The notes beneath the pieces are model-generated. The model did no database searches. It saw only the letters and a program-made list of their open reading frames with translations, and was not told the DNA's origin. This document shows positions 10,610 through 45,900 of a DNA stretch of 64,000 nt, piece after piece. This stretch comes from Elusimicrobiota bacterium (GTDB lineage: Bacteria > Elusimicrobiota > Elusimicrobia > UBA1565 > UBA9628), in assembly GCA_016234805.1 (NCBI GenBank), contig JACRNU010000030.1:27406-91405 (forward strand). Direction: 5' to 3'. The stretch's first letter is position 1. The number at the start of each line of letters is the position of its first letter. The position numbers were made by a program, and so were the translations under genes.

Positions 10610-10726
10610 GGATATTGTACTATTGCGCTGTGGGCGATGAACCGATCGAATCGGAGGAGGCGCGGGAATGGGCGCTCATGACGCCTGTCCAGCGATATCT
10701 GGAGAGTTGCCGGTTATGGTCCACGT

Positions 10727-13816: not shown

Positions 13817-14612
13817 GACCGCGGCGTACCTGCGCAAGGCCCTGGGCGACGCGCGCAGCTACCGCCTGGGCTTCGGGTTGGCGCTTTTGAGCACTGTTTT
13901 CTCCGTGGTCTCGTATTTCTTCATTGACAAGCTCTTCGGCAGGCAGGTCGCGCCCCATCTCGCGCCGTTCGGGGTCAGCTACTTCTCCTACGTCCTGGTG
14001 GGGATGATGGCCAGCACTTACCTTGGAGGGGCTTTGGGCGCGGTCTCGAGCATGATGAGGGAAGAGCAGGTCTGGGGGACCTTCGAGGCCCTCCTGGCCA
14101 CGCCGACCGGGATATTCACCATCGCGTGCGCCATGGCTTCCTGGAACCTCATCATGGCCTCCCTGGAGACCGCGGTCTATGTCCTGGCCGGGGTCTTCGT
14201 CTTCGGAGTGGATTTCAGCAGCGTCAACCTGCCTGCCGCGCTGATCATCCTGTCCCTGGCCATGGTCTCTTTCTCGGCCATGGGGATCATCTCCGCTGCC
14301 TTCATCCTGGCCTTCAAGCGCGGCGACCCTCTCTCCATCATGATGAACCTCGGGATGGAGATACTGGGGGGGGTGTTCTTTCCGGTCACGATCCTTCCGG
14401 ATTGGCTCAAGGCTTTGTCATACCTTTTCCCCACCACCTACGCGGTCCGGTCCCTGGAGCTGGCGATCTACAGGGGCGCGGGGCTAGCGGACCTCCGGCA
14501 CGATGTGGCCGTGCTCGCCGTTCTGTCCGCGGTCTTGGTCCCCATGGCCTACCGGAGCCTGGGGGCGGCATTAGATTACGCCCGTAGGAAAGGCACGCTG
14601 GCGCAGTATTGA
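13809..14612 (+). CDS. ABC-2 type transporter permease.
   Basis: MAKTAAYLRKALGDARSYR followed by six predicted TM helices typical of the ABC-2 family. Start overlaps the ATPase gene by 8 nt. Confidence 0.7.
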   Translation: MAKTAAYLRKALGDARSYRLGFGLALLSTVFSVVSYFFIDKLFGRQVAPHLAPFGVSYFSYVLVGMMASTYLGGALGAVSSMMREEQVWGTFEALLATPTGIFTIACAMASWNLIMASLETAVYVLAGVFVFGVDFSSVNLPAALIILSLAMVSFSAMGIISAAFILAFKRGDPLSIMMNLGMEILGGVFFPVTILPDWLKALSYLFPTTYAVRSLELAIYRGAGLADLRHDVAVLAVLSAVLVPMAYRSLGAALDYARRKGTLAQY

Positions 14613-14619
14613 GCGCGGA

Positions 14620-15123
14620 TCAGAGGCGCTTCTCCATCGTGGACTCGTCTCCGGAACTCTCGACGACGTGAAAGCCCATCTCCCGATAGAGCGCGAGGGC
14701 TGCCCAAGCCCTGCGGTTCACCGACAGCGTTACGGCCTCGCCCTTCCGAGTCTTGACGTGGTCGAGGATCGCGGCGCAAAGGCTCCGGCCCAGGCCCTGG
14801 TGTCTGTAGAGCGGCTTGACCCAGACCCCGTCTATTCCCCATCGACCGCCGCCGAGCAGGGTGACGGTGGCCGTCCCGATGACCGTATCGCGCGTCAGCG
14901 CGACGAACCGGGCGCCTCCGGCGAGCTCGCCCTTGAGGCCTTCGGCGAATTCAGCTTGGGTCATCCCGGGCGCGCTGTTGAGGCGGCACAGCTCCGCGGC
15001 GTCGTCCATGGTGGCCGGCCTTACGACTGCGCGTTCCCGCAGCAGGAGCGTCCGTATGAGCCTGCGGCATCCCGATGCCTCCAGCAGGAACGATGCGACC
15101 CTGGTCGGCGGCCAAGGCGTCAC
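14620..15123 (-). CDS. GNAT family N-acetyltransferase.
   Basis: VWVKPLYRHQGLGRSLCAAILDHV is an acetyl-CoA binding motif (R/Q-x-x-G-x-G/A). Confidence 0.75.
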   Translation of the reverse strand: MTPWPPTRVASFLLEASGCRRLIRTLLLRERAVVRPATMDDAAELCRLNSAPGMTQAEFAEGLKGELAGGARFVALTRDTVIGTATVTLLGGGRWGIDGVWVKPLYRHQGLGRSLCAAILDHVKTRKGEAVTLSVNRRAWAALALYREMGFHVVESSGDESTMEKRL

Positions 15124-15150: not shown

Positions 15151-15834
15151 TCATCGGCTGCGCCAGACCAGCGTATCAAGCTCCTGGAGCTCAGCATCGA
15201 GCTCCAGCCAGGGCTGGCTGTCGAAAATGGAGCGCTGGCGCGCGCAGAAATAGGCCACCCGGATAATGCGCGGCTTGGCGATGAGCGACCGCCGGATGTT
15301 CTCCACGACCGCGCCGAAGGTCTTGGGCCCAAAAGGGTCGGAGAAGAAGAAGGCCGTGCCTTCCGACACATCGAACGATGCGGCATCGGCGCGGACGAAC
15401 TCCCCCCCCCCCCCCCTGAAGGTCCGCTTGTTCTCCATGGCGATCCGGAACAAGTCTTCGTTCAACTCGACTCCCACCGCCCTCTTCGGACGGAGCGTGG
15501 CTGCAAGAAAGACGGCCCTGCCCTGCCCGCATCCGAGGTCAATAAAGACGTCCTCTGGCCCCAGGGCGAGGAAGGCCAGGATTTTGTCCGCGGCGGCGTA
15601 GGAGATGGGATCGTACGGCTGCATGTCGCGGAATCCGCTCTCGTCGGCGTTGCGTCGCCACGGCAGGTTTGTCCTGATGCCGAGTCCCCGGTCGCGCCGA
15701 TGCTCCGCCACGACGACGGCGAAGTCCCGCGTCGTGTCCAGCAGATGCTGTCCCAGGCCCGATAGGAAGCGCCGGAAACTCTGCAAGAGCTTGAACGCCA
15801 GCGAATCCTTGACCCTCGCGCGGAGCGTCAGCAT
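15151..15834 (-). CDS. Class I SAM-dependent methyltransferase containing a 15-nt poly-C tract (GGGGG in the protein).
   Basis: VFIDLGCGQGRAVFLAA (motif I). The last gene of the minus-strand cluster; its start overlaps the upstream fusion gene by 7 nt. Confidence 0.65.
   Translation of the reverse strand: MLTLRARVKDSLAFKLLQSFRRFLSGLGQHLLDTTRDFAVVVAEHRRDRGLGIRTNLPWRRNADESGFRDMQPYDPISYAAADKILAFLALGPEDVFIDLGCGQGRAVFLAATLRPKRAVGVELNEDLFRIAMENKRTFRGGGGEFVRADAASFDVSEGTAFFFSDPFGPKTFGAVVENIRRSLIAKPRIIRVAYFCARQRSIFDSQPWLELDAELQELDTLVWRSR
15402..15416. repeat. Homopolymeric tract C15 (G15 on the coding strand) inside a methyltransferase CDS.
   Basis: Direct reading of gaactCCCCCCCCCCCCCCCtgaag; it encodes RGGGGEF. 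Confidence 0.8.
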
Positions 15835-18146
15835 GGGGCGCGAAGCTCCTTTTCCGGCGGCCGCCAGTCCGGGATGACGCCGATGCCGAAGCCCTTCTGA
15901 TCCCAGTCCTCCACGATCTCCTCGACGGGATGGGCGGCCTTGATCTCCCGCCAGAGCCTGGGTGATTCCTGGTCGCCGGTCGAGGGGTCGGGCACGATGT
16001 CGTGGAAGGCTATTATGCCTCCTTCCCGGACCAGGGGGGAGTAACGCTCAAAGTCGGATCTGACCGCGTCATAGGCGTGGTCGCCGTCGATGAAAAGGAA
16101 ATCCGCCTTCCTGCCGCCCAGCAGTTCCCGGACCCGTGCCAGGGTCCGGTCGCTCCCGGAGTCCGAGCGGACGAGCCTGATCGTCTGTCCCTTGAGCCCG
16201 ATCGAACGGTAGAGCGGGATCCTCGCGGCCGAGTATCCTTCGCCGCCTCCGAAGAAGGGCCCTGGGAGGTCCACGCTGACGAGGAGGGCGTCCTTTGCCG
16301 CGGCTCGGGAGAATAGGAACAGGGTCCCTCCGAGCTCGGTCCCGATCTCGACGATCACCTCGGGCTGGCGCGCCTTCAGGAGTTCGACGAGACGGATGAT
16401 CTCGCTCCTCACTTGAGCCGGCTGGAGGAGGCCCTCGAGTCCGTCGAAGGCGAGATCAGCCAGCCTGCCGGGGTCCCAGGTCAGGTCCGCGGCTTGGATG
16501 TCCCGCAGGTGAAGGGGGAGCTTGAGCAGGCGTTTGGCCGCGGCCGCGAGCCCGCCGGCGGAGCCGGGGCCGCGTTCGCGGACGACCCTGTCCCGCCAGC
16601 GACGTTCGAGTCGGTCGACGCCTTCCTCGCCGAGCAGGTCCGAGCTCTTGCTGCCGTAGTGGATGACCCAGACGTTGATGAGGGCGTAGAGCTTCCAGCC
16701 CAGGCGCTTCACGCGCTGGGTCAGGTCGATCCCTTCGTGACCGAGAAAGTATCTGCGGTCGAACTCCCCTGCCTCGGCCAGGGCGGACCGACGCGCCAGG
16801 AGGAACCCGCCTTCGAGATAGTCCACCTTGGCGAAGAAGAAGCCGTCCTTGAACCGGCCGCGCCAACGGGCGATGGTGTCGAGGATCCGATTCTCGCACC
16901 AGGAGTTGGGGAAGGCCTTGTTGGCGCGAAGGCAGAGGTCCCAAAGCACGCGCCGCCAGCCGGTCAGCACGACGCCGACCTCCCAGGCCTCATCCTTGTC
17001 CTCCGGCCGCTCGATCTCCCGGGGCATGGCGGCTCCCGCTTCGGGATGCTCCTCCATGAACCGCACGGACCTGGCCAGGGTGTCGGGCAGCATTTCCGTG
17101 TCCGGGTTGAGGAAAAGGACGAATTCTCCCCTGGCCAGGGCCACGGCCTGGTTGTGTCCGGAGCCGTAGCCCACGTTCTCTCGATTCTCGACTACTCGGA
17201 CTTCCGGGTATTTCTCCCGGACCATGGCGGCGGAGCCGTCGGAGGATGCGTTGTCCACCACGATGACCTCGAGGTCCAGGCCTCCCGCGTGCCGGAACAC
17301 GGAGGCGAGGCATTTGTCCAGGTAGTCCCTGACATTCCAGTTGACGATGGAGACCGTGAGCTTGAGGGCGGGACCGGCCTGGACCCTTGGGGCTGCAACC
17401 GGGATCCCCCGAAGAGTCCTCCCGAGGCGGAAGGCCAGCCGGTGGAGGGGATGAGGGATCGCGGACACCAGGAGCCCGAGGACGCGGTCCATGGGCTTGT
17501 CCAACGGAGTCCTGTCGCCCTTCCTGATCCGGGCCGCCACCCTGCCGAGGATCTCGGATTCCGTGACCTGGTCAAGGCCGTCCCCGCTGTCGGCTTTGAG
17601 GGTGAAGGTCCATCCGCCTTGGCCGGCCGAGGCGCCGACGATGCGGTGGGCGGCCATCCTGTCGTCCTTGGAGTAGAGGACGATGTCCCCTCTCCTGAGT
17701 CCGGCGGGCCCGGCCGGCCTGACTTCCAGCGTGTCGCCGTCCTTGATGATGGGGGACATGCTTGAGCCCCGCGCCTCGAGCCGGACCGAGGCGCCGCGTT
17801 CGAGCAGGGAGGCCGCGACCGAGGCCAGGTCAACGGCCCCGACGTTCAGGCCGTCCAGGCGGTTCTCAGCCACGCTCCCGCATCCTTTGTGTTCCGGAAG
17901 GAAAACTCCTGGACCGGGATCTCCCGGCAGAGCCTCGCGCACGATCCCAGAGCGGCCTCCATCAGCTTCTTGTCCCACCAGGGAGCGAAGGTGCAGCGCA
18001 GCAGGGCTGCCGCGGCCCCCGATGGGGACAGGGAGGCCAGGCCGTTGCTTTTTGCCTGCCGGAGGATGAAGAGCTTCTTGAGGGGGACGGCTCTGTTGGC
18101 CGCGAGCCGGTCCTCTCCGGGCCAAGGCGTGCCGCACAGCAGCCAT
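15828..18146 (-). CDS. Three-domain fusion protein: S24/S26 (LexA/signal-peptidase-like, Ser-His type) peptidase domain, a family-2 glycosyltransferase, and a class I SAM methyltransferase (TylF/cephalosporin-hydroxylase-like). True start probably internal.
   Basis: N-terminal: GSSMSPIIKDGDTLEV...RRGDIVLYS...AAHRIVG, an SPase I/LexA-like fold with His in place of the general-base Lys. Middle: KLTVSIVNWNVRDYLDKCLASVF...VIVVDNASSDGS...FLNPDTEM, a GT2 DXD-type domain. C-terminal: VIVEIGTELGGTLFLFS...FLFIDGDHAYDAVRSDFE...GGIIAFHDI, a methyltransferase. The first ~100 codons of the track ORF overlap the upstream kinase gene. Confidence 0.65.
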   Translation of the reverse strand: MAAVRHALARRGPARGQQSRPPQEALHPPAGKKQRPGLPVPIGGRGSPAALHLRSLVGQEADGGRSGIVREALPGDPGPGVFLPEHKGCGSVAENRLDGLNVGAVDLASVAASLLERGASVRLEARGSSMSPIIKDGDTLEVRPAGPAGLRRGDIVLYSKDDRMAAHRIVGASAGQGGWTFTLKADSGDGLDQVTESEILGRVAARIRKGDRTPLDKPMDRVLGLLVSAIPHPLHRLAFRLGRTLRGIPVAAPRVQAGPALKLTVSIVNWNVRDYLDKCLASVFRHAGGLDLEVIVVDNASSDGSAAMVREKYPEVRVVENRENVGYGSGHNQAVALARGEFVLFLNPDTEMLPDTLARSVRFMEEHPEAGAAMPREIERPEDKDEAWEVGVVLTGWRRVLWDLCLRANKAFPNSWCENRILDTIARWRGRFKDGFFFAKVDYLEGGFLLARRSALAEAGEFDRRYFLGHEGIDLTQRVKRLGWKLYALINVWVIHYGSKSSDLLGEEGVDRLERRWRDRVVRERGPGSAGGLAAAAKRLLKLPLHLRDIQAADLTWDPGRLADLAFDGLEGLLQPAQVRSEIIRLVELLKARQPEVIVEIGTELGGTLFLFSRAAAKDALLVSVDLPGPFFGGGEGYSAARIPLYRSIGLKGQTIRLVRSDSGSDRTLARVRELLGGRKADFLFIDGDHAYDAVRSDFERYSPLVREGGIIAFHDIVPDPSTGDQESPRLWREIKAAHPVEEIVEDWDQKGFGIGVIPDWRPPEKELRAPC

Positions 18147-18736
18147 CGCGAGCCGGACCTGCGCAGCACGATCCGGTCATCGCTCAACACCGGGATCTCC
18201 GGGCCGGACCCCCTCAGCAGGCGGGTCATGGTGGTCTTTCCTGCCCCGGAACTGCCGGCCAGGGCCACGCCCCCTTCCCCGACCGCGAGCCCGGCGGCGT
18301 GCAGGAGCAGGCCCGAGGACCCGAGGAGCGTCACGGTGAGCTGGCGGCTGATCAGGTCAAGGGTTTGGATGAGGGATGCTCCCGGAGCCTGACGCTGCAT
18401 GAGCAGGCGGTAGCGCCTGACCTTCCGGCCGTTCCGGATGCCCTTCCCTTCCGGGATCAGCACCCCGCAGGGCGGCTTGTTGCGCTGGGATGAGATGCGC
18501 AGGACCTCCTGTCCACGGCACGCGGTGACGCGCCAGAACACGGGGGTGTCGTAGACGACTCTGTCGCCGGCTCCGGCCTCGGCATGGCCCGGGGATATGG
18601 TCACGACCGCGTCCGGGTATTTATTCGTGACGAACTTGAGGTAGGCCGACATCCTGCTGTCGGTCCCGAGTTCGGGGATCCAGCGGCTCCGGAACTCCAC
18701 GACCGGACCCCCAAGTTCCAGCCTGAGGCTGGGCAC
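17846..18736 (-). CDS. HPr kinase/phosphorylase C-terminal-domain-like P-loop kinase (HprK-related).
   Basis: LLLHAAGLAVGEGGVALAGSSGAGKTTMTRLL is the Walker A region, in the arrangement seen in HprK C-terminal domains and in HprK-like kinases of RiPP clusters. Confidence 0.65.
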   Translation of the reverse strand: MPSLRLELGGPVVEFRSRWIPELGTDSRMSAYLKFVTNKYPDAVVTISPGHAEAGAGDRVVYDTPVFWRVTACRGQEVLRISSQRNKPPCGVLIPEGKGIRNGRKVRRYRLLMQRQAPGASLIQTLDLISRQLTVTLLGSSGLLLHAAGLAVGEGGVALAGSSGAGKTTMTRLLRGSGPEIPVLSDDRIVLRRSGSRWLLCGTPWPGEDRLAANRAVPLKKLFILRQAKSNGLASLSPSGAAAALLRCTFAPWWDKKLMEAALGSCARLCREIPVQEFSFRNTKDAGAWLRTAWTA

Positions 18737-18758: not shown

Positions 18759-18923
18759 CTAGCTTCTGCTGTAGGTGACGCGGCATCGGGAACACGCCCT
18801 GCCTGCGCAGCGCGAGGTGTTCGTGCTGCGCGCCGCGGACCTGCAGGCGGTGAGGATCTGCTCCTCGAGCGCGAGCTTGACCTGGACCATGGCGGGCTTC
18901 TGATACGGCTTCTTCTGGCTCAT
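18759..18923 (-). CDS. Candidate RiPP precursor peptide (54 aa): helical leader plus a Cys-rich, Ser/Arg-rich C-terminal core ending in Ser.
   Basis: Sequence MSQKKPYQKPAMVQVKLALEEQILTACRSAARSTNTSRCAGRACSRCRVTYSRS. The frame is taken from the tail of track ORF 18759..19277 and is too short to be called alone; my own reading of the raw text here differs by one base. An AGGAGA Shine-Dalgarno (18931-18936) sits 7 nt upstream of the ATG at 18923, which is 11 nt downstream of the radical SAM/SPASM stop. Confidence 0.5.
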   Translation of the reverse strand: MSQKKPYQKPAMVQVKLALEEQILTACRSAARSTNTSRCAGRACSRCRVTYSRS

Positions 18924-18934: not shown

Positions 18935-20005
18935 CTATTGTTGCGTTTGTGCCGGTTCCTTGGAGCCGGCTTTCTTCCCGGCGAGGGCCTGGTGGCGCAG
19001 ACCGGCCTTGCGGCAAAGGGGTTCCACGATCCCTCCCAGGGACCGGTGCTCCAGCATGGCGTAGCCTGAGCACTGCTCGCAAAGAGGCGCTTTGTCGCAA
19101 GCAAGGCACTTTGGGGAAAGGCTTTCCTCCATCACGCGCCGGAAAAGGGGCATGGCTTCGCGCCACCCCGCTGAGAAGGAGCCCTTCCTGATGTCGTAGG
19201 CGAGGTTCGGGAAGGAATCGCAGGGCTGGAGCATGCCGTAGGGGTTGATGGTGAACACGATGGCGCCTGCCCCGCACAGGAGCAAGTCGCGGGCCGGGAC
19301 TTGGGAAAGCTCCCTGAGGAGTTCGCCGTATTCCTGCTTGGACTTCTCATCCGCGAGGTCCAGGGCCACGGTCTCCTCGGGGCTCAGCCGCAGTCCCCGG
19401 TTGTCGAAGCCTTCGTCGAGCCGGGGCACGAGGATGGTGTCGTAGGCGAGGCTGCGTCCCGGGTGCACGGCTTCGGCGGTGCCGCGCATGGCGGTCAGCT
19501 CGTGCTTGTTGAGGGACATCACCATGGTCTTGAGCGCGACATCCACTCCCCGCTCCTTCAATAGTCCGGCCGCGGCCAGGGAGCGGTCCAGGGAGCCCGG
19601 GCTGCGGGTGATCCGGTCATGGGTCGCGGCCGTGGCGCCGTAGATCGTGATCTCGACTCCGAGCGGCGGGTAATCGGCGAAGAGGTCCGCGAGCTCCGGG
19701 GTCAGGAGGGTGCCGTTGGTGAAGACCTCGATGAACATCCCTCGTCGGATCGCATGGAGGTAGATGTCCCGGAAGTCGGGCCGGAGCAGAGGCTCCCCGC
19801 CTGTCAGGAGAAGCCATAGGCAGCCGGCGTCCGCGACCTCGTCGAGGATGCGCCGGACCTCATCGAGGGAGAGCTCCTGGTCCCGCGCGGCGCGGTCTTC
19901 GGCCGGGATGCTGCAGTAGCAGTGGACGCAGTCCTGGTTGCAGCGGTAGGTCAGGGCCAGGGAGCCGAGATAGGGCAGCCGCAGGGACATGGCCTTCTCA
20001 TCCAT
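18935..20005 (-). CDS. Radical SAM/SPASM domain peptide-modifying enzyme.
   Basis: LTYRCNQDCVHCY is a CxxxCxxC radical SAM motif; the C-terminal SPASM-type Cys cluster is CLACDKAPLCEQCSGYA. Start placed at an internal Met (MDEK); the track ORF extends to 20056 and overlaps the PqqD gene. Confidence 0.75.
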   Translation of the reverse strand: MDEKAMSLRLPYLGSLALTYRCNQDCVHCYCSIPAEDRAARDQELSLDEVRRILDEVADAGCLWLLLTGGEPLLRPDFRDIYLHAIRRGMFIEVFTNGTLLTPELADLFADYPPLGVEITIYGATAATHDRITRSPGSLDRSLAAAGLLKERGVDVALKTMVMSLNKHELTAMRGTAEAVHPGRSLAYDTILVPRLDEGFDNRGLRLSPEETVALDLADEKSKQEYGELLRELSQVPARDLLLCGAGAIVFTINPYGMLQPCDSFPNLAYDIRKGSFSAGWREAMPLFRRVMEESLSPKCLACDKAPLCEQCSGYAMLEHRSLGGIVEPLCRKAGLRHQALAGKKAGSKEPAQTQQ

Positions 20006-20042
20006 GACGCGGCGGAACTCGCCGAACCCGGCTTGGGGGATC

Positions 20043-20330
20043 TTAGCGCAGGGCATGGCTCTTCACCAGGTCCTTGGCGGCGAGGGCTCTCAGGAAATCC
20101 AGGGTGTCTTCCTCGGCGATCTGAGCAGCCACCTCGAAGCGCTCGCGGATGAGCTCCGCCGCCTGCGCCGCCGTACGGCGCCCATCCAGGGCGTCCCAGA
20201 GGAGGGCGCCGGTCTCGTTGAGCCGCCAGACCACGGCCTCATCCTGGTCCACGAGCACGGCCTCGTCTTCGATGAGCTTGAAGAGGATGTCCGGGTTGCG
20301 GACGGGCCGGTCCTGAAGAGAGAGCTTCAT
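20043..20330 (-). CDS. PqqD-family protein (RiPP recognition element-like peptide chaperone), copy 1.
   Basis: 95 aa: ...FKLIEDEAVLVDQDEAVVWRLNETGALLWDALDGRRTAAQAAELIRERF..., a PqqD fold signature. 4-nt overlap with the upstream B12-rSAM gene. Confidence 0.8.
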   Translation of the reverse strand: MKLSLQDRPVRNPDILFKLIEDEAVLVDQDEAVVWRLNETGALLWDALDGRRTAAQAAELIRERFEVAAQIAEEDTLDFLRALAAKDLVKSHALR

Positions 20331-23197
20331 CGGGACACCATGGCGTCAAGGGCGGTGGCCGCGGCTCGGTAGAGCTCCCGGCCGGCCTTGCCGTAGCGGC
20401 GCTCGGCAAGGAGCCCGCGTCCCAGCCGCCAGTGCAGGTCGGCTGAGTCGAGCCCCAGGCGCCTGGCTTTCCTGAAGTGGGAGAGGGCTTCGCCGGCTTT
20501 CCCCTGCCGCTCGGCGATGAGCCCCAGTTGGAAGAATGCGCCTGCTGAATCAGGGGAGAGGTCCAGGACCGCGCGGAAATGAGAGGCCGCTTCCTCCGGA
20601 GAACCTCCGGAGGCGAGCAGCACGGCTCCCAACCCGAAATGAGCGTCCTCGATCGCGGGGGAAAGCTCCAGGGCCTTCCTGAACAGGCGTTCGGCTTCGG
20701 TCCAGTCTTTACGTGCGCGGTTCACGTTGCCAAGGCCGCAGAGCGCGAGGGCGTTAGCCGGGTCGAGCTTCAAGGCGTCCTTGTACGCTTTCTCGGCTCC
20801 GGCCCGATCATCCATGAACTCCAGGACCGGTCCTGGGTTGTTGTAGGCGGTCCTGTAGGACGGGTCGAGACCGACCGCCTTGCGATAGGAGAGCCTGGCC
20901 GAATCGATTTCTCCCTTCTCGAGGCCCGCAAGGGCCGCGAGGTAATGCCGGGCGGCGGGCGGCACGGACCAATCCGAGGACTGAAGGCGGGCCTTGAGCT
21001 CGTCTCCCAGGTGCTTGAACCGCAGGGGGGTGAAGCCGCCCTCCACGGAATACGAGATGGTCGTGCATTCCGGTTTGAGGCCCAGTCCGGCAAGCCGCTG
21101 GGAAAGGCGCTCCGGAGCGATCCAGGGCTCGCGGTCCGGAGCGAGGTCGTCCGTGACTTTCCTGGTCAGCAGGTAATCCAGATCGATGTCGAGCAGGACC
21201 GGGCCCGGGAACTTGGGCAGGCCGGCCAGTTCGCAGACGATGGTCTTCCTGCCCGCGAGTTCCGTGACCAGCAGGTCTCCTTGCGCGCGCACGAGCGTTC
21301 GCGGCCGGGCAAGCCTCTTGAGCGTGCGAAGGACGTGCCTGCGCTCCTTATGGCTGGACAGGGTCCCGTCCGGCACCACCCAGTAGAACTCGGACACGAT
21401 CCCATCCTGCATGGCAGGACAAACGAAATTGCCGATGGTGACCAGGCGCTCCTTCGGGGTCTCGACCGGATTCCACAGGGGCCGGCTCGCGAGCAGGCTG
21501 TCCAATTCGGCCTTGGTGCCGGCTTCGAGGATCTGGGTGATGTCCTTCTCCGGGACCCAGCCGAAATCGATGTGCGCGTCGAGGTGGATGAGGGGCAGTC
21601 CCGAGAGCCCGAGCTTGCGCCATACCCCGAGGACCTCGTTGTGGTCTTCCACGAGATGGGTGGACCTCCGGTGCATCAGGCCTTTGCAGAGCTGTTCCAG
21701 CCGGCCGGCCTCCATGGGGCTCATCGGGCCTCTTGCCTGGCGGAACTCGGTGAAGAACTTGAACGGCAGGCCTCCGTCCCTGTCGAATTCCAGCCCCCAC
21801 CGTGCCGGGTCGTCGTAGACTGGGCACTTGGGCGTCAGATAGTACGTGTTGAAGGCGGGATGGTCGATGGAGGCGCGGTTCTCGGAGATGAAAGCCACGG
21901 TCTCCAACCCTTCCTCGACGGTCTCTCCCGGCAGACCGAAGATGGTCTGGAGGCCCACCGCGACTCCGGCTGCGTGACAGTCCCTGATGACCCTTTCCGA
22001 GACCGCCTGCTTGTTCCCTTTGAGCACGAGGCCGCAGACCCTGTCCGAGGCGGACTCGAAACCGAAATTGACCTGCTTGCAGCCCGCTTCCCTGGCCAGG
22101 TCGAAGATGTCCCGGGTGAAGCCGTTGTCGAGCCTGGCCATGGTCCACCAGGGCACGGCGAAATCCTCCTGGATGAGCCTCGTCGAGACCTCGCGCATCT
22201 GGCTCGGGGACATGGTGGCGTTGGAGACCAGCAGGAGCGCCGGCTTGTGGCGTTCCGCAAGGGCCTTGAAGTCCCTCGCCACCAGGTCCGGCGATTTGGC
22301 CCGGTAGGACGGCTTGGGCAGGGGCAGGTCCACGCAGTAGGCGCAGCGGTTCCAGTAGCAGCCCCGGGAGGTCTCGCAGGTCAGGGCAAGGCCTCCTTGC
22401 CTGCTGCTTGCGTAGCTCGCGAGCGGAAGTCCTTCGAAGTCGGGAGTGGGCAGGAGGTCGAGGTCCTCCTCGCTGGTGACGGGGCTGCGGATCCAGGCGC
22501 CGTTGGCATGGCGGATCAGGTTGGGCACGGTCGAGACAGGACCCCGGGACTCGAGCGCCGAGACCAGGCCCAGGAGGGGGGTCTCGCCCTCGCCGGTCAC
22601 GACGAAGTCGAAGAGCGCCGCCCAATCAGGGCGGGCCATGATCTCCTCCGCGAAGAGGGTTGCCCATTGGCCGCCGAGGGCGATCTTCACCTCAGGGGAC
22701 CGCCGCTTGAGCAGGCGGCAAAGCGTCAGGCCGGCCAAGGCTTGGGAAGGGGAGACGATCGAAAGGCCGATGAGCGATGGCGTGCCTGAGAGGATTCCCT
22801 TGGCCCCCGGGTCGGCCAGGAAGAACCGCAGGAATGTGTTCTCGTCCTCATCGTCCAGATACCTGAAAAGGATGCCGCTGGAAAGGATCCGTTCGATGAA
22901 GTAGAAGGAGGAATTGGTCCTGTTGTCGTACGGGCTGCCGTATTGGTAGTCTCCGGCGTTCTGCGGCAGGAGGGATGAGTAGTAGAGCCCTTGGGCCTTC
23001 CCGTCAAAGAGCTCGTTCATCCGCCGCCGCGCCGTGTCCGCGGAACCGTCCCAGGAGTCCCGGTAGGCGAGGTTGAGGTCGAGCTGCGAGACGCCGATCC
23101 CCCTGGACTTCAGGAAGCCGGCCAGGGCCGGCGTTCCCAGCGGCGGGGCGTCGTATTCGTAGTCGGGAGGGATGACAAGGCGGACTTCCGGCATCAA
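20327..23197 (-). CDS. B12-binding radical SAM protein with a C-terminal TPR repeat domain (956 aa).
   Basis: N-terminal B12-binding region (IGLSIVSPSQALAGLTLCRLLKRRSPEVKIALGG). Radical SAM core with a CETSRGCYWNRCAYC cysteine motif. C-terminal ~250 aa with TPR-like repeats (AYNNPGPVLEFMDDRAGAEKAYKDALKLDP..., HFGLGAVLLASGG...). Confidence 0.75.
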   Translation of the reverse strand: MMPEVRLVIPPDYEYDAPPLGTPALAGFLKSRGIGVSQLDLNLAYRDSWDGSADTARRRMNELFDGKAQGLYYSSLLPQNAGDYQYGSPYDNRTNSSFYFIERILSSGILFRYLDDEDENTFLRFFLADPGAKGILSGTPSLIGLSIVSPSQALAGLTLCRLLKRRSPEVKIALGGQWATLFAEEIMARPDWAALFDFVVTGEGETPLLGLVSALESRGPVSTVPNLIRHANGAWIRSPVTSEEDLDLLPTPDFEGLPLASYASSRQGGLALTCETSRGCYWNRCAYCVDLPLPKPSYRAKSPDLVARDFKALAERHKPALLLVSNATMSPSQMREVSTRLIQEDFAVPWWTMARLDNGFTRDIFDLAREAGCKQVNFGFESASDRVCGLVLKGNKQAVSERVIRDCHAAGVAVGLQTIFGLPGETVEEGLETVAFISENRASIDHPAFNTYYLTPKCPVYDDPARWGLEFDRDGGLPFKFFTEFRQARGPMSPMEAGRLEQLCKGLMHRRSTHLVEDHNEVLGVWRKLGLSGLPLIHLDAHIDFGWVPEKDITQILEAGTKAELDSLLASRPLWNPVETPKERLVTIGNFVCPAMQDGIVSEFYWVVPDGTLSSHKERRHVLRTLKRLARPRTLVRAQGDLLVTELAGRKTIVCELAGLPKFPGPVLLDIDLDYLLTRKVTDDLAPDREPWIAPERLSQRLAGLGLKPECTTISYSVEGGFTPLRFKHLGDELKARLQSSDWSVPPAARHYLAALAGLEKGEIDSARLSYRKAVGLDPSYRTAYNNPGPVLEFMDDRAGAEKAYKDALKLDPANALALCGLGNVNRARKDWTEAERLFRKALELSPAIEDAHFGLGAVLLASGGSPEEAASHFRAVLDLSPDSAGAFFQLGLIAERQGKAGEALSHFRKARRLGLDSADLHWRLGRGLLAERRYGKAGRELYRAAATALDAMVSR

Positions 23198-23484
23198 TTA
23201 GCGTGCACGCTTTTTATGGTCTCGAACTGCGTCAGGATGGTCCCAAGATCCGCCTCGACCTCGGTGCCGGTCGTCGCGTACTCCTCCAGCAGGGTCGTCT
23301 TGATCTGCCCCACGGTGCGCTGTCCGTCGATGAGTTCCCAGACCCGGGCCGCGGTGTCGTTCAAGGTGAAGATGCTCCTCAGGTCGCCCACCTTCTCCCG
23401 GATGGGGACGAGGATGTACTCATCCGCGATGCGGCGGCCCACGAAGTCGGGGTTCTTGCTGTAGCGGCGTTCCAATAGTTGCAT
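23194..23484 (-). CDS. PqqD-family protein, copy 2.
   Basis: MQLLERRYSKNPDFVGRRIADEYILVPI...LNDTAARVWELIDGQRTVGQIKTTLLEEYA is a PqqD-like fold. The ATG at 23484 has a GAGGGAG RBS. 4-nt overlap with the downstream B12-rSAM start. Confidence 0.65.
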   Translation of the reverse strand: MQLLERRYSKNPDFVGRRIADEYILVPIREKVGDLRSIFTLNDTAARVWELIDGQRTVGQIKTTLLEEYATTGTEVEADLGTILTQFETIKSVHAN

Positions 23485-24845: not shown

Positions 24846-26705
24846 ATGGTCATCCCGGTGAAGGACCAGAAGCCCCAAGGGCTCCTCTCCGCCGCGGCTG
24901 CGGCAGCCGGCCTGCTGGCCTTCGCCGCGGCCTATAACGCGTTCTGGGGCCTGCGCTCGATCAACTCCTACATGGCAGCTCCGGTCATCGACGCCGGCTA
25001 CCGCGTCTTCCTGGGCCAGACGCCTCTGGCCGATTTCTTCTCGCCCTATGCTCTGGTCCTGGCCTGGCTGCAGGGCCTCTTCTTCAAGTGGTTCGGGGCA
25101 AGCTACGCGGCGTACCTCACCCTGGGATGCGCCATGAACGCTGCTGCCGCGGGCCTGGTCTTCTGGTCGGTCTGGAGCGAGGAGCGGGATGTCGGGCTTG
25201 CCGCGGCCGGGGGGCTCGTGACCGCCGCGTGGCTCATGCCCATCTCTGGGGGCGGCCCCGTGCACAACTCCGGCGCCTTCTTTTTCGTGCTCGCCGCCGC
25301 GGTGTGCCTCTGGACCCCGTCGCGCGGTCTGTCGCCCTGGCGGACCTTGCTGGCCGGCGCGGCCCTGGCCATGGCCTTTCTCACCAAGCAGAACGTCGGC
25401 GCTTTCGCGGCCTTTTTCCTCGCCCTCTATGTCCTGGCCGCAGGCTCCCCGGCCGACCTGGGCCGCCTGGGAGCCGGGATCGGCCTAGGGCTGGCGGTCC
25501 TGGCCTTGGCGATCGGCCCGTCAGCGTGGGGTGATGCCTGGCATTTTGTCGTGGCCTTGCCGGCCGGCGAGAGGCTCTGGGGCAGGTTCTTGGGCTCCAA
25601 GCCCGCGGGCTGGCTCGCCTTGGCCGGCTTGGGCCTGGCGGTCCTGCTGCGCAAGGGCGAGCGGCCGCTGCTCGCGTGCGCCGCGATCCTGTTCCTCGCG
25701 CACCTGCTCGGCGGCCAGGACTTCAGGCCCGGGGTCTCCGTCCACATGTTCCTGCCCTTGGCTGCCCTGCCTCTCATGGTCCGCCGGGAGGACCGGGCCA
25801 TGCTCCTCGCCCTGGTCCTCGTCGGATATTCCTCCGCGGTGAGCGCGAGCGCCGCCATGGAGCATTCCATGCCCCTCGTCGGCGTTGAGGCCGTGCTGGT
25901 TTGCCTGGCCTGGAAGCGGGGGCGCTCGGACCCGGCAGGGCAAGGCCTGGTCCGGGCCTTGGCCGGCAACGGGTTCCTGGCCGGCGATGCGCCGGTCTGG
26001 GCCGGGATGGGCCTGCTCATCCTGCTGGGCGTCCGCCAGGCGGCCATGCATCGCTGGGGCGTTCTCGCATCGGTCCCTGTCGTGGGCCCTCTTGTCGGGC
26101 TTGCAATCGCGTGGGCTGGTTGGAGGCTGTGGCGAGGCAGGGGCTCCTGCGAAGAGCCGGGCAGGGCCAGGGTCGGAGGGGTCGGACTCGCTCTTGTCCT
26201 TGTCGGAGCTGGTTGGGCAGGGCGGCAATGCTTATCTGCCCTAGGCTCAAGGGGCGCCGGCCAGTCCGTTCCCTTGGGGGAGGGAGAGGCCAGGGACCTC
26301 CGGATACCGTTCTTCCAGGGGCTGGACATGCCCCAGGCTGAGGCACGCGGGATCGCGAAGCCCCTGGATTATCTCGCTGGCCTGCCTCCTGAATCAAGGC
26401 CCTTTTTCGTCTACCAGTCAGGGACAGGGTCGATGCTCTACGCCGCTCTCGGCCAGGCTCCGCCGCAGCCGTTCGTCATGTTCGACCGGGGCTTCACGCA
26501 CGGCGGCCTTGGGGACTACGAGAAGGTCTGTTCAGCGTTGAAGGCCGCGGACATCCGCGCCGCGGGGTTCGACGATAGCGGAGAAGACCTCCTCAACGAA
26601 CCGGGCCTGGAGTGTCTCAGGCGCTGGCTTGAGACCGATTTCTTCAAGGACAAGGAGAGCGGAGGCTGGGTGTTCTACCGGCGGAGGCCGGTCCGCCGGG
26701 AGTAG
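24846..26705 (+). CDS. Polytopic membrane protein, probably a GT-C fold glycosyltransferase (ArnT/PMT-like); paralog 1.
   Basis: More than 10 predicted TM helices with a soluble C-terminal domain. Shares conserved N-terminal (YRVFLGQ.PLADFFSPY) and C-terminal (W.FYRRR) blocks with the two downstream paralogs. Confidence 0.5.
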   Translation: MVIPVKDQKPQGLLSAAAAAAGLLAFAAAYNAFWGLRSINSYMAAPVIDAGYRVFLGQTPLADFFSPYALVLAWLQGLFFKWFGASYAAYLTLGCAMNAAAAGLVFWSVWSEERDVGLAAAGGLVTAAWLMPISGGGPVHNSGAFFFVLAAAVCLWTPSRGLSPWRTLLAGAALAMAFLTKQNVGAFAAFFLALYVLAAGSPADLGRLGAGIGLGLAVLALAIGPSAWGDAWHFVVALPAGERLWGRFLGSKPAGWLALAGLGLAVLLRKGERPLLACAAILFLAHLLGGQDFRPGVSVHMFLPLAALPLMVRREDRAMLLALVLVGYSSAVSASAAMEHSMPLVGVEAVLVCLAWKRGRSDPAGQGLVRALAGNGFLAGDAPVWAGMGLLILLGVRQAAMHRWGVLASVPVVGPLVGLAIAWAGWRLWRGRGSCEEPGRARVGGVGLALVLVGAGWAGRQCLSALGSRGAGQSVPLGEGEARDLRIPFFQGLDMPQAEARGIAKPLDYLAGLPPESRPFFVYQSGTGSMLYAALGQAPPQPFVMFDRGFTHGGLGDYEKVCSALKAADIRAAGFDDSGEDLLNEPGLECLRRWLETDFFKDKESGGWVFYRRRPVRRE

Positions 26706-28426
26706 AAGACCCATTCATCGATCGTCCGGTCATCGACGAAGCCTTCCCTGAGCCAGCGCTTCATGCACTCCGGCCCCGTTCCGTACCCCGGGCCTGGAAC
26801 CCCTCCGTACGCTCCCACGGTCCGGACATCGGCCCGCTCCAGCGCGCTGCAGAGAAGCGCCTCGTCTTCGGGGCCCTGGTAGGTGAGCCCTGGGTCGGCT
26901 CCGATGAACGGTTGTGGAGGGGCCTGTCCCAAGGCGGCGTAGAAGACGGTTTCGGACACCTCGTTATAGAGGAAGAACGGCCGCTTGTTTTCGGGAAGAG
27001 CGGCAAGATATAGGTAGAGCCGGTCCATGGACTGGGCTTCAGCCAAAGGAAGTCTGAGACCATTGAAGAACGGGGCTGCCAGGGTCGAGGTCCTGACCGG
27101 GCCGCCGGAGCCGGCCGCCGGGGCCGGCTCGCGGCGCAGGGCGAGAGTGGAGGAGATTCCCTGCCAGAGCAGGGCAAGGCCCGCCACGACAACCGCGATG
27201 CCCAGGGTCGAGGACTGCTGCCGCCGTTCCCCGAAAAAGCGCCGGCCGGCCCACAGCCTAGCTCCGGCCCACGAAGCGGCCAGGCCGACGACAGGCGCCG
27301 CCACGGGGATGGTCCAGAGCGCGTTCCAGCGAGTCATGGCGATGTAACGCAGTCCCATGCCGCAGAGGAAGACGCAGCCTCCCCAGACCGGCAGGCTCGC
27401 GGCCCGGGCGGCGTTGCCGGCCAGGGCCCGCGTCCAGGGCTCGGAGCCGGGCGACGCGGACCAACGCTTCCAGGCCCTGCACATGAGGAGGTGCTGGAGG
27501 CCGAGGAGCGGCAGGTTTTGGCTCAGCGGACTGCCGGAGAAAGCCGCGGCAAAAAAACCCGTGAGGGTCGCGGCCAGCAGGAAGATACGGTCCGCGGTCG
27601 TGGCAAGGAAGGGCGCGGCAGCCAAAGGCAGAAGGCTGAATGGGGACAGTCCCTCCAGGATGCCGCGCGCGGCCATGGCTGTGAAAATGCGGTCGGATAA
27701 TCCGTGCGCGGGAAGGACAACAAGGTGGCGCCACGCTCCCAGCCATCCTTCCGGCCCTAGGGCGAAAGCAAGGAGCGCCAGTCCGGCGAGGAATCCGCAG
27801 GCAAGGATGCCCGCGCTGCGCCCTGCCCTGCAGGCGGAGAACAGGCCGAGGAAGACCGCCGCGAAAAGCCCGACCGGCTGTTTGATGGAGAAAGCCCAGG
27901 CCAGAGCCGCTCCCGCGGCAAGAGTCCGAATGGTTCCGGTTTCCGATGGGGGGTGGTCGGCGTCGAGCAGCAGGCAGAAGGCCGCGACAACGAGGAAATA
28001 CGCGGAGGAGTTGTAGGTGGGGCCGCCCAAGGCGACAGGCATGAGCCATGTCGCTGTGATGGCAGAGGCTGTTCCTGCCAGGGCAAGATCGCGGTCAGAG
28101 CGCCAGACCGCCCAAAACACGGCGATCGCGGCAGCGGCGTTGAGGACGCATCCCAAGCCGACATACGCGGCGTAGCTGACGCCGAACAGCTTGAAGAACG
28201 CCGCCAGCGCCCAAGATGGAGCGGGTCCGATAGGGCAATGGAAATCCTGGAAAGCCTTCTGCCCCAGATAGACGCGCCAGCCGCCGTCGATGATGATGGA
28301 GGCCTGATCATAACCGAAAAAATGGAAGCCGCAGTACCTGTTGAGGAGAAACGCGAAGGCCGCGACCGCGGCAGCCGCGACCGCGACCGTCAAAGGCGAT
28401 GTCTTTGGTCCGGAGTTCAGGGGCAT
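26675..28426 (-). CDS. Polytopic membrane protein, GT-C-like; paralog 2, convergent with paralog 1 and overlapping it by 31 nt.
   Basis: MPLNSGPKTSPLTVAVAAAAVAAFAFLLNRYCGFHFFGYDQASIIIDGGWRVYLGQKAFQDF... aligns with paralog 1. Start placed at an internal Met. Confidence 0.5.
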   Translation of the reverse strand: MPLNSGPKTSPLTVAVAAAAVAAFAFLLNRYCGFHFFGYDQASIIIDGGWRVYLGQKAFQDFHCPIGPAPSWALAAFFKLFGVSYAAYVGLGCVLNAAAAIAVFWAVWRSDRDLALAGTASAITATWLMPVALGGPTYNSSAYFLVVAAFCLLLDADHPPSETGTIRTLAAGAALAWAFSIKQPVGLFAAVFLGLFSACRAGRSAGILACGFLAGLALLAFALGPEGWLGAWRHLVVLPAHGLSDRIFTAMAARGILEGLSPFSLLPLAAAPFLATTADRIFLLAATLTGFFAAAFSGSPLSQNLPLLGLQHLLMCRAWKRWSASPGSEPWTRALAGNAARAASLPVWGGCVFLCGMGLRYIAMTRWNALWTIPVAAPVVGLAASWAGARLWAGRRFFGERRQQSSTLGIAVVVAGLALLWQGISSTLALRREPAPAAGSGGPVRTSTLAAPFFNGLRLPLAEAQSMDRLYLYLAALPENKRPFFLYNEVSETVFYAALGQAPPQPFIGADPGLTYQGPEDEALLCSALERADVRTVGAYGGVPGPGYGTGPECMKRWLREGFVDDRTIDEWVFYSRRTGLRR

Positions 28427-29097
28427 CGGGGCCGCGAGCCTCCGCACTCGGTTTTGCGGATGAAGAACAGCCTGTCGTCGATCTTCCGGTCCGGGGTGAA
28501 GTCCTTCCTGAGCCAATCCCTGAGGCAGGCTGAGGTCTCATCGTCGCGGGGAAGCTCTCCGCCGGCATCCAACGCCACCGTGCCCACCCCGGCCCGCTTG
28601 AGGGCGGCGCACATCCCGACCGGCGTCTTGCAGGTGAAGGCCAGTCCGAGGGACAGCCCGGTAAGGATGGTCCGCATGGAGCCCGGTCCCGCTGTCGGGT
28701 CCGGGCCTGAGCCCAGGAGCAGGCACGCGGCGATGAACACGAAAAAGAAGGCGCTGGAGGTGATGATCGGGCCGCCAGCGCAAACCGGCATGTACCAGAC
28801 CGCGGCGTTCATGACGCTCCCAAGGGCGATGTAGGCGGCGTAGGTGACCCCGAACAGCTTGTAGAAAGCAGCCAGCATCCAGAAGAGGACCGGTCCGAAG
28901 GGGCAGAAGAAGTCGAGGAAAGGGGCCTGGCCCAGGTAGACGCGATAGCCGCCTTCGATGACGCCGGCCGCCAATTCGTTTCCGTAGAAATGGAAGCCGC
29001 AAAAGCGGTTGAAGAGGAAGGCGAACAAGGCGACTGCCGTGGCGCAGGCACCGACGGCCAGGGGGCGCGGCGCCACGGGTCGCGCGGGCATGGGCAT
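28417..29097 (-). pseudogene. Internally deleted third paralog of the GT-C-like membrane protein (226 aa: N-terminal ~170 aa fused in frame to the C-terminal ~55 aa).
   Basis: The N-terminus aligns with the paralogs (FAFLFNRFCGFHFYGNELAAGVIEGGYRVYLGQAPFLDFF) and the C-terminus with their tails (ACLRDWLRKDFTPDRKIDDRLFFIRK vs CMKRWLREGFVDDRTIDEWVFYSRR). The middle ~380 aa is absent. Confidence 0.45.
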
Positions 29098-29128
29098 GCA
29101 GAGCGCAATGCTATCATATCCTCATCCC

Positions 29129-30025
29129 ATGCGCGGCTTGGACGAGTCCCTGCCCCTTTTGGCCAGAAACCTCTTCCTCCTCGGCACGCTCAGGGAGTTG
29201 CTGGCCGAGGCGCGCAAGCGCGGCATCCCGGTCATCGTGCTTAAGGGCGCCGCCCTCCTCTGTTGGCTCATCGAGGACCCGGGGGCGCGTGCCATGGGAG
29301 ATCTGGACATCCTCGTGCCTGAGGCGAAACGGCTCGAGACCGAGAGGATGCTCGCTGACTTGGGGTACGGTCTGGCTCCTGGGACTGTCGAGATGTTCAT
29401 GCGGGGCACGGCGGTGGTGGACCTGCATACCAGCCTTCTCCACAGGCAGGACACCGCGTCCCTGTGGCGCGAAGCCGTGCCTTGCTCCATCGAGGGAGAG
29501 AAGGCCCTGGTCCTGGGGCCTGATGAGACCTTCATCCACCTGGTGGCGCGGGCCTTTCTTCAGGGTGGGAGCTTGGAGGAAAAATATCTCGACGACCTGC
29601 GGCGGCTGGCCGCGACCGCTGGAGGCGGCTTGATGGGCCTGGATTGGGACCGGGTGATCGGGAAGGCTTTGGGGCTCGGTCTGGGTCCCATGGCGCACGC
29701 GGCCTTGGAAGAGCTGGCCAGAGCCTCGGACCGGTCAGGCGCGGTTTTGGCTGGAGCGCCGCTGGTCCCGGATCGGGTGCTCGCCGCCCTGAAGCCCTCG
29801 GGCGCGGGCCGCGCCGCTGCATGGGTGGCCCGAAAGGCGGCTTCGCGCAGGGATGAGAGCTATTTCAACTCAGCGGTCCTCTTCACTTTGGTAAGGCCGG
29901 GCTTCGTCTTGTCCCGGCTGTTCCCGAACCGCGAGTTCCTGGAGCGGCGCTACGGGGAGAACTGGAAGCGGGAAGCCCTGCTTCGGCCGTTCAAGCTCGC
30001 GGCCAGGGCCTTGGGCTTGAGGTAG
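29129..30025 (+). CDS. Nucleotidyltransferase-family protein (uncharacterised NTP_transf_5/PF14907-like).
   Basis: VLKGAALLCWLIEDPGARAMGDLDILV contains the G-x(n)-D-x-D nucleotidyltransferase motif. Confidence 0.55.
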   Translation: MRGLDESLPLLARNLFLLGTLRELLAEARKRGIPVIVLKGAALLCWLIEDPGARAMGDLDILVPEAKRLETERMLADLGYGLAPGTVEMFMRGTAVVDLHTSLLHRQDTASLWREAVPCSIEGEKALVLGPDETFIHLVARAFLQGGSLEEKYLDDLRRLAATAGGGLMGLDWDRVIGKALGLGLGPMAHAALEELARASDRSGAVLAGAPLVPDRVLAALKPSGAGRAAAWVARKAASRRDESYFNSAVLFTLVRPGFVLSRLFPNREFLERRYGENWKREALLRPFKLAARALGLR

Positions 30026-31183: not shown

Positions 31184-31296
31184 GTCTGGTGATATTGTAC
31201 AATAATCTCCACGGGGCACCACTAGGGGACGGCCGTGATTTTCCGTAACATCCCCGTCATTGACTTCATTTCTGTTCCGGTTATACTCTTAATCCC

Positions 31297-44667: not shown

Positions 44668-45900
<1,233 letters not shown>

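Follow-up and report, generated by a model that had tools for sequence, protein, structure and literature searches.

A stretch of 64,000 nucleotides from an Elusimicrobiota bacterium (assembly GCA_016234805.1, contig JACRNU010000030.1, positions 27,406 to 91,405 of the forward strand), in the following referred to as the window, harbours a minus-strand operon running from 23484 to 14620 which quite probably constitutes the maturation pathway of a ribosomally made peptide. At the core of this operon, a large protein composed of a B12-binding radical S-adenosylmethionine (rSAM) domain, a predicted peptide arginase domain and a tail of tetratricopeptide repeats (TPR) is encoded between two discrete PqqD proteins, followed by a SPASM-type rSAM enzyme and a short Cys/Arg-rich precursor peptide. 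The domain identities, the conservation of ligands, the fold, the gene order across phyla, the precursor family and the gene fusion have been directly established. Every enzyme family in the cassette is already known; the cassette itself is an undescribed cassette of the type that matures peptides made by the ribosome and modified after translation (RiPPs). An original prediction, made from the sequence alone, had recognized two PqqD-rSAM modules at this locus and suggested a dedicated RiPP recognition element (RRE) for each rSAM enzyme.

The four genes named in that prediction, encoding PqqD1, the large protein, PqqD2 and a 373-aa rSAM enzyme, are genuine at the positions given there; according to the open reading frame (ORF) list and the translations, all of them are located on the minus strand of the window, which is GC-rich (63-71%), with all junctions overlapping. 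The gene for PqqD1, a discrete RRE protein of 96 aa (23194-23484, minus strand; Pfam PF05402, 51.3 bits, E 1.5e-13), is preceded by a ribosome-binding site (GGAGA) 7 nt upstream of its ATG and shares 1 or 4 nt (TGATG/TTGA) with the start of the large ORF (20327-23197, minus strand), which encodes 956 aa from TTG, the length originally predicted, and 955 aa from the ATG at 23194, the likely start. The protein is identical to the NCBI protein P0001, 955 aa long and named 'UPF0489 family protein', which is encoded on a 158-kb contig of an Elusimicrobia metagenome-assembled genome. Its stop codon overlaps by 4 nt (ATGA) with the start of PqqD2, a second, more divergent RRE protein of 95 aa (20043-20330, minus strand; PF05402, 62.1 bits, E 6.3e-17), which in turn overlaps by 14 nt with the gene for the SPASM-type rSAM enzyme (18935-20056, minus strand; PF04055 Radical_SAM, 86.5 bits). 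Each PqqD gene is thus located directly upstream of, and overlaps with, a different rSAM gene as had been noted before. Promoter and terminator scans between 14.3 and 24 kb of the window found nothing exceeding the shuffled expectation.

These genes recur as a cassette in other phyla. Scanning one genome per GTDB species with an alignment of the B12-rSAM gave 40 loci, which were annotated with the window proteins as queries. All 25 close relatives of the B12-rSAM with readable flanks (38-66% identity; GTDB or metagenome loci) reside in a cassette that contains, besides PqqD, the arginase-TPR protein, at least one SPASM rSAM enzyme and a ScmC-like protein, and equally either a small gene for a Cys/Arg-rich peptide or an intergenic gap in which one is contained. 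The hosts belong to the Elusimicrobia, Omnitrophota, Planctomycetes and Deltaproteobacteria, and L001 and L002 likewise retain the gene order. Two layouts can be distinguished. Type I, the layout of the window, has the order PqqD1, B12-rSAM, arginase-TPR, PqqD2, SPASM, precursor, ScmC-like and S24/GNAT(/NTP_transf_5), while type II, found in loci which include L004, L006, L011, L019, L022 and L027, has the order B12-rSAM, S24, arginase-TPR, PqqD, precursor, SPASM, SPASM, ScmC-like and SPASM. The type II precursors are longer, with the leader KPKFNP..TR.KLNPEQAVL.C.C, related to that of type I, and a core starting with CxC(Y/F). With a RiPP-type cassette around every close relative with readable flanks, the original proposal of a peptide-acting system is supported; a clustering of the B12-rSAM with lipid or cofactor enzymes and its occurrence free of PqqD elsewhere were not observed, as the best NCBIfam match is TIGR03975, a RiPP C-methyltransferase family, and PqqD accompanies the enzyme in all 25 loci. 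As a side observation, the closest relative locus (L001, 3838-5813) encodes an additional, more distant B12-rSAM of 528 aa and, next to it, a third PqqD of 108 aa, a pair that does not occur in the window.

The N-terminal part of the large protein (aa 1-~510; 21668-23197, minus strand) passes the Pfam cut-offs of both the B12-binding domain (PF02310, 40.6 bits versus 32.1) and the rSAM domain (PF04055, 46.9 bits versus 29.5). Its iron-sulfur motif within CETSRGCYWNRCAYC (aa 274-288) reads C280-x4-C285-x2-C288, with these three Cys invariant in a 26-sequence family alignment and C274 not conserved. The non-canonical motif previously reported is therefore real; it deviates from the canonical Cx3Cx2C by a one-residue insertion compared to TsrM and, as judged from the alignment, is a variant spacing in which the cluster ligands have not been lost. 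The match to TIGR03975 (118.3 bits, E 3.4e-34) is below the curated cut-off of 281.85, and although the best-scoring models, TIGR03975, PhpK and ApyD, are methyltransferases, BchE, HpnJ and OxsB-type models have been matched as well. Searches against the sequences of the PDB, which were dominated by TPR matches with the whole 956-aa protein and were repeated with isolated domains, gave weak matches to TsrM (6WTE), AprD4 (6FD2) and OxsB (5UL2).

By analogy with these relatives, C-methylation by the B12-rSAM domain might be one option among others, not the sole one, because PbsB, a B12-rSAM that shares the biphenomycin-like pbs pathway with a peptide arginase, makes a C-C cross-link (PMC12257519). 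That the domain is not a methyltransferase at all, and that it cross-links the peptide or carries out some other radical rearrangement in which cobalamin has no role in methyl transfer, is a real though minor possibility. The C-C cross-link made by PbsB next to a PF12640 arginase is a biaryl (PMC12257519), and the missed TIGR03975 cut-off, the matches to the BchE, HpnJ and OxsB-type models and the Cx4Cx2C spacing that distinguishes the family are in line with such chemistry; on the other hand, the top families are methyltransferases, a biaryl link is unlikely with a single conserved aromatic residue, a Tyr, in the precursor core, and cross-linking of Cys is already covered by the SPASM enzyme.

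The second part of the large protein (aa ~511-745; 20963-21667, minus strand), overlooked in the original prediction, which had described a B12-rSAM with a ~250-aa TPR domain, is assigned by motifs, weak profile matches and fold to the peptide arginases (PF12640/UPF0489, the FlmR/OhkR/OspR family). Peptide arginases convert Arg residues of RiPP precursors into ornithine, and their motifs EEH(N/H)EAF, DXHXD and LDIDLDYFSC supply six Mn ligands (PMC12703449, PMC10028609). In the large protein, the motifs EDHNEV (517-522), LDAHID (539-544) and LLDIDLDYL (668-676) are present with all six predicted Mn ligands, H519, D540, H542, D544, D670 and D672, in a spacing equal to that of H10, D31, H33, D35, D165 and D167 of PbsE (PMC12257519); alignments of 14-16 homologues have these ligands and a SYSVxGGFTP block invariant or nearly so. 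PF12640, the UPF0489 family which now carries the Pfam name FlmR_OhkR_N, matches residues 515-612 with 21.4 bits (cut-off 27; E 3.6e-4), while the isolated domain matches NF052474, 'peptide arginase, FlmR/OhkR family', with 31.9 bits (cut-off 350; E 9e-8). Precomputed PF12640 hits exist for the homologues P0002 and P0003 and for stand-alone arginase-TPR proteins. An AlphaFold2 model of residues 505-745 (pLDDT 83.9) retrieved OspR chains of 8BRP at ranks 1-3 in a Foldseek search of the PDB (E 3.4e-6, TM 0.48-0.50), with guanidinopropionase, agmatinase, proclavaminate amidinohydrolase and arginases at the next ranks; a fold search with the arginase and TPR parts together had been dominated by TPR matches and was repeated with the isolated domain. 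Motifs and model thus point to a peptide arginase domain with a ureohydrolase alpha-beta-alpha fold closest to OspR. A catalytically dead domain, or one acting on a non-peptide guanidino substrate, which would mainly serve as a scaffold, could be read from the sub-threshold family scores, the shorter domain without the OspR dimerisation insert and the modest superposition, but is considered very improbable, as the metal ligands and the SYSVxGGFTP block are conserved to (near) invariance, the domain strictly co-occurs with Arg-rich cores and every PF12640 member that has been characterised is a peptide arginase (PMC12703449).

The TPR domain at the C-terminus (aa ~746-955; 20330-20962, minus strand) consists of about 5-6 repeats over ~210 aa, with TPR_11 (83.5 bits) and other TPR families above the Pfam cut-offs between aa 751 and 949, and its AlphaFold2 model is all-helical (pLDDT >90) and resembles the TPRs of CTPR, OGT and MamA. 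A ~250-aa TPR extension had been thought to be an unusual feature of a class B rSAM enzyme; however, because stand-alone arginase-TPR genes occur in the relatives, the shorter tail seen here is a property of the arginase branch and not of the rSAM. The full architecture was found in just three of 5.8 billion proteins, namely that of the window, P0002 (66% identity) and P0003 (52%), the latter with an extra C-terminal PqqD domain. Approximately 280 further matches are stand-alone B12-rSAMs of 530-630 aa (45-50% identity), which have a ~480-aa arginase-TPR gene as neighbour, either adjacent or with a small S24-like gene in between. An exhaustive phmmer search with the arginase domain retrieved 675 cluster representatives at E<=1e-3, 446 at E<=1e-10 and 125 at E<=1e-30; almost all of them have a length of 430-550 aa and carry the domain N-terminally, and only the cluster of the window protein has it at 504-744. 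Separate adjacent genes for the B12-rSAM and the arginase-TPR protein are present in Omnitrophota, Planctomycetes and Deltaproteobacteria, while the fusion is restricted to three Elusimicrobia lineages, one of which also fuses PqqD2. On this comparison of architectures, the 955-aa protein is the product of fused genes for two maturases that are neighbours elsewhere. An artefact of sequencing or assembly as the origin of the fusion has been rejected in view of the continuous ORF in three separate assemblies (100, 66 and 52% identity). In L008 of the UBA9639 Elusimicrobia (9992-13046), the fused gene is interrupted close to its 5' end and reads as two ORFs of 151 and 914 aa, so that this record seems to contain a frameshift or an assembly error.

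The second rSAM enzyme possesses the canonical C39x3C43x2C46 motif and seven C-terminal Cys in the pattern C261..G274-x4-C279 (CX12GX4C), C317-x2-C320-x5-C326-x2-C329 and C348. Together with the near-full-length alignments to the MftC and GeoRSP rSAM models, for which all equivalog cut-offs have been missed, this pattern is in line with the original assignment as an rSAM/SPASM protein, although the Pfam SPASM model gave no match to the 373-aa protein at E<=0.01. Relatives in the PDB are BlsE, SkfB and PqqE, and the enzyme is presumed to be a thioether or cross-link maturase. The gene directly following, with the ribosome-binding site GGAGA 7 nt upstream, encodes the candidate precursor, a Cys/Arg-rich peptide of 54 aa (18759-18923, minus strand) with the sequence MSQKKPYQKPAMVQVKLALEEQILTACRSAARSTNTSRCAGRACSRCRVTYSRS. 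Syntenic orthologues in 12 other loci give the 80% consensus KK.Y..P...EVKL..E...L.ACR...C..C..TY..S-COOH, with three invariant Cys, conserved basic residues, an invariant Cys-Arg pair and a Tyr as the one conserved aromatic residue of the core. The last residue is Ser in 13 out of 13 type I precursors and Ser or Thr in 7 out of 7 of type II (20/20 overall). NCBIfam, with its peptide models of the ACGX, GeoRSP and SCIFF type covered, gave no match to the precursor at E<=1, and tblastn found no second copy within the window.

Whether each rSAM enzyme indeed has its own RRE can be approached by the distribution of the two PqqD proteins, which both exceed the Pfam PqqD cut-off of 23.4 bits, are encoded beside RiPP maturases and share 33% identity over 76 aa. 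By phmmer scores, the PqqD proteins fall cleanly into two orthologous groups. PqqD1-type proteins are encoded upstream of the B12-rSAM in type I loci (11 loci besides the window) and PqqD2-type proteins after the arginase-TPR module in type I loci. Both have been kept in 12 loci (the window, L001, L002 with PqqD2 fused, L007, L010, L012, L016, L018, L021, L024, L029 and the P0018 locus), and such an old and retained duplication argues for distinct roles. On the other hand, all type II loci as well as L020 and L028 make do with a PqqD1-type protein as the only PqqD for one B12-rSAM and as many as three SPASM rSAMs, while L009 and L015 have no upstream PqqD and only the downstream copy, as confirmed by tblastn. 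Furthermore, in L002 and L008 PqqD2 has been fused to the C-terminus of the B12-rSAM/arginase/TPR protein and not to the SPASM enzyme. The assumption of one RRE per rSAM is therefore, as far as gene content can tell, plausible at the window locus, but not general. It is not far from an even chance that the PqqD proteins are not enzyme-specific, with one RRE serving all maturases and the second copy being a lineage-specific extra, for example for the arginase-TPR module or for efficiency. The loci with a single PqqD of either type and the position of the PqqD2 fusion are readily explained in this way, in contrast to the two separate orthologous groups, each translationally coupled to a different rSAM and fixed in 12 loci that span Elusimicrobia, Omnitrophota and Deltaproteobacteria.

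Downstream of the precursor gene, the operon continues with tailoring functions. A P-loop protein of 296 aa related to ScmC and HprK, with the Walker A motif GSSGAGKTT (17846-18736, minus strand), matches HprK_rel_B (E 6.5e-9) and ScmC (E 6.6e-5) with scores far under the cut-offs (35.3 versus 200 bits and 22.4 versus 125 bits, respectively); its orthologues, with a weak PF27840 ScmC match, are conserved in all cassettes, and by analogy it is a possible peptide kinase. The subsequent gene encodes a fusion of an S24/S26-like peptidase, a GT2 glycosyltransferase and a CmcI-type methyltransferase (15828-17873, minus strand; Glycos_transf_2 88 bits, Methyltransf_24 55, RMNT_CmcI 33.5, Peptidase_S24 E 1e-4, sigpep_I_arch E 7e-7), the start of which is uncertain: the longest form begins at 18146, but GTG at 17873 is more plausible. 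An S24-like domain is present in nearly every related cassette. A class I SAM methyltransferase of 227 aa (15151-15834, minus strand; DOT1, Methyltransf_31 and Methyltransf_25) with an orthologue in L001 and a GNAT acyl/acetyltransferase of 167 aa (14620-15123, minus strand; Acetyltransf_1, 51.7 bits), which in type I relatives is fused to S24 (and NTP_transf_5), complete the operon. Convergently oriented is an ABC-2 type exporter (13064-14612, plus strand) with ATPase (13064-13816; drrA, 214 bits) and permease (~13809-14612; drrB, 57 bits), a pair equally found convergent with the cassette in L001, L002, L016, L018, L021 and L024. A 338-aa protein of the NTP_transf_5 nucleotidyltransferase fold, although encoded apart from the operon (29009-30025, plus strand; PF14907, 96.8 bits), is probably part of the system, since L002 and the P0018 locus have this domain in one protein with S24-GNAT and L001, L012 and L027 have it next to the cassette genes.

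Extrapolating from characterised relatives, the enzymes of the cassette might act as follows. One or both PqqD proteins would bind the conserved leader (KKPYxKPxxxEVKLxxExxL) as RREs and thereby offer the Cys/Arg-rich core for modification by the enzymes. The B12-rSAM domain would modify an unactivated carbon of the core, with C-methylation as the most likely and a cross-link as a less likely outcome, and the Mn-dependent arginase domain would hydrolyse at least one Arg of the core to ornithine and urea. The TPR tail, which always accompanies the arginase, might be a docking surface for the peptide or the RRE that takes the place of the domain through which stand-alone peptide arginases dimerise. 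The SPASM rSAM would then turn the three invariant Cys into thioether cross-links of the sacti- or ranthipeptide type. In lasso peptides, an HPr-kinase homologue phosphorylates a conserved C-terminal Ser, to which a nucleotidyltransferase homologue adds a hexose (PMC9266682); by analogy with PadeK/PsmK and PsmN, the ScmC/HprK-like protein and NTP_transf_5 might phosphorylate and subsequently decorate the invariant C-terminal Ser, a weak step of the scheme. GNAT could acylate an ornithine amine, as known from selidamides, where acylation of Orn by GNAT requires prior arginase action (PMC8784127), and the GT2/methyltransferase fusion could attach a methylated sugar. Finally, the S24-like peptidase would cleave off the leader and the ABC-2 pump would export the product.

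Several observations weigh against this scheme. With the B12-rSAM domain below the TIGR03975 cut-off, methylation is a guess; the arginase domain is equally under both curated cut-offs, ~60 aa shorter than OspR and superimposable on 8BRP with a TM-score of only ~0.5; the similarity of the P-loop protein to proteins in the PDB is restricted to the level of the P-loop (Walker-A); a single PqqD suffices in about half of the related loci (about twelve); and the cassette is repeatedly embedded in an exopolysaccharide (EPS)-export neighbourhood, which may mean a different biological role of the product.

A bolder extension of the scheme considers the B12-rSAM and the arginase as coupled catalysts on the same residues, which would explain their constant adjacency and their fusion in the window. 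The outcome would be a residue new to ribosomal peptides, for example C-methyl-ornithine or a subsequently deguanidinated and methylated Cys-S-to-C-alpha(Arg) ring of the enteropeptin kind, and the product a new RiPP class, widespread in uncultivated Omnitrophota, Elusimicrobia and Planctomycetes, with a phospho/glyco C-terminal Ser and a tie to the EPS-export locus. We regard this as speculative and, taken as a whole, unlikely. The invariant Cys-Arg pair of the precursor makes enteropeptin-like chemistry a lead, nothing more. In enteropeptins, an rSAM thioether at the Cys next to Arg, an arginase and methylation are combined (PMC12703449, PMC12395415), but their arginase belongs to pfam00491 and their methyltransferase is not a B12-rSAM.

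Among known systems, the arginase domain resembles the pfam12640 arginases OspR of landornamide, FlmR/OhkR, KspR/PhaR and PbsE in its motifs, its six His/Asp ligands, its fold and its location in a RiPP cluster with an Arg-rich core, but differs by a ~230-aa domain apparently without the OspR dimerisation insert, by the ~210-aa TPR tail and by its position behind a B12-rSAM; the precursor of the window is of a type outside the arginase precursors listed for this family (NHLP, Nif11, SCIFF, SCCRRSCN, DD(I/V)LF, MGXRRSSE). With the class B rSAM maturases PoyB/PoyC (TIGR03975) and PbsB, the large protein shares the N-terminal B12-binding domain and the rSAM core, and its pairing with a PF12640 arginase is pbs-like; unlike in these systems, Cx4Cx2C replaces Cx3Cx2C, PqqD is a discrete partner, the arginase-TPR module is fused and an MNIO is missing here. 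Sactipeptide and ranthipeptide systems (SkfB, AlbA, PapB) have in common the SPASM-type rSAM, the RRE and the Cys-containing core, whereas in the window the RRE is a separate protein and the cross-link is a predicted one. Phosphorylated and glycosylated lasso peptides (paeninodin with PadeK, pseudomycoidin with PsmK/PsmN) equally combine an HPr-kinase-related P-loop protein and a nucleotidyltransferase-fold protein with a precursor ending in Ser, but a lasso cyclase and protease are absent here and the P-loop protein is only weakly similar to HprK-related families. An HprK-like P-loop protein, a PqqD-like protein and SPASM rSAMs, with three of the latter in the type II relatives, are reminiscent of SynChlorMet (Scm), although Scm has neither a B12-rSAM nor an arginase-TPR protein. 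Membership in SynChlorMet itself has been rejected, since all scores, 17-74 bits versus 100-400, are far under the cut-offs (ScmC 22.4 versus 125, ScmD 35.8 versus 100, ScmE 70.4 and ScmF 73.8 versus 400), as are those of the proteins of the type II locus L004; a literature search on ScmC/SynChlorMet matched unrelated acronyms only.

In the searchable literature, which did not include a 2020 survey of peptide arginase clusters, we found no description of the TPR-tailed arginase branch, of the obligate pairing or fusion of the TPR-arginase with a Cx4Cx2C B12-rSAM, of the precursor family or of the layouts with one or two PqqDs. Equally, no NCBIfam model covers the precursor, and the enzymes stay below the cut-offs of all NCBIfam models. 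Peptide arginases, of which about ten have been characterised, form a young family of maturases and are sought as tools for the introduction of ornithine into peptides. The locus adds to them a large unstudied TPR-tailed branch (the 675 cluster representatives, mostly 430-550 aa), a natural arginase-B12-rSAM fusion that points to coupled chemistry and a new family of short Cys/Arg-rich precursors that share a conserved leader. Furthermore, cassettes with one versus two PqqDs provide a natural comparison for RRE specificity, and the spread of the cassette includes phyla with almost no characterised natural products.

Beside the cassette, genes of an EPS-export type have been identified, namely a pepcterm_export-like gene (31986-32687), a Wzc-like gene of the tyrosine autokinase type (32697-34529) and a pepcterm_ATPase-like gene (34555-35364), with a 1365-aa Ala/Glu/Arg-rich coiled-coil protein (36799-40896) and an HD-like protein also encoded nearby. 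The family matches are under their cut-offs (pepcterm_export-like Wza 128 bits versus 180, pepcterm_ATPase-like AAA 207 versus 324). Poly_export and HD-like homologues adjoin the cassette in at least 10 loci of other phyla, and EPS-type neighbours are found in L002 (20165-22741), L004 (1-6956) and L027 (14593-17501). The modified peptide might accordingly not be a free secreted product but part of an EPS or cell-envelope system, for example a phospho-glycosylated primer, an anchor or a matrix component that functions with the Wza/Wzc-type export genes. The three flanking genes, the recurrence in other phyla and the presence of GT2, a sugar-type O-methyltransferase, NTP_transf_5, SGNH and polytopic membrane paralogues in or beside the operon are in agreement with such a role; we nevertheless consider it improbable, as secreted RiPPs typically have an S24-like peptidase and an ABC-2 exporter of their own, every EPS-family match is below cut-off and the co-location may reflect a common envelope locus and not a common pathway.

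Some additional genes of the neighbourhood are mentioned as side observations. A 392-aa protein (30044-31222, minus strand) without Pfam or NCBIfam match has homologues, HD_5/HD in L004, that accompany the cassette in ~15 related loci, and it may belong to the wider system. Three polytopic membrane paralogues of ~40% identity (24846-26705, plus strand; 26675-28516 and 28417-29097, minus strand) have no family match but orthologues in L001; the third is internally deleted, with ~190 N-terminal and ~55 C-terminal aa kept. Directly upstream of PqqD1, an SGNH/GDSL hydrolase with an N-terminal membrane segment is encoded (23559-~25000, minus strand), the longest ORF of which, 568 aa, probably begins too far towards the 5' side. 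Two M16 (insulinase-type) peptidases encoded as a translationally coupled pair upstream of the ABC exporter (7434-9155 and 9152-10609, plus strand) could be an alternative or additional leader protease. Finally, metK for S-adenosylmethionine synthetase (44668-45900, minus strand; 546 bits), about 21 kb from the two rSAM genes, is probably a housekeeping gene.

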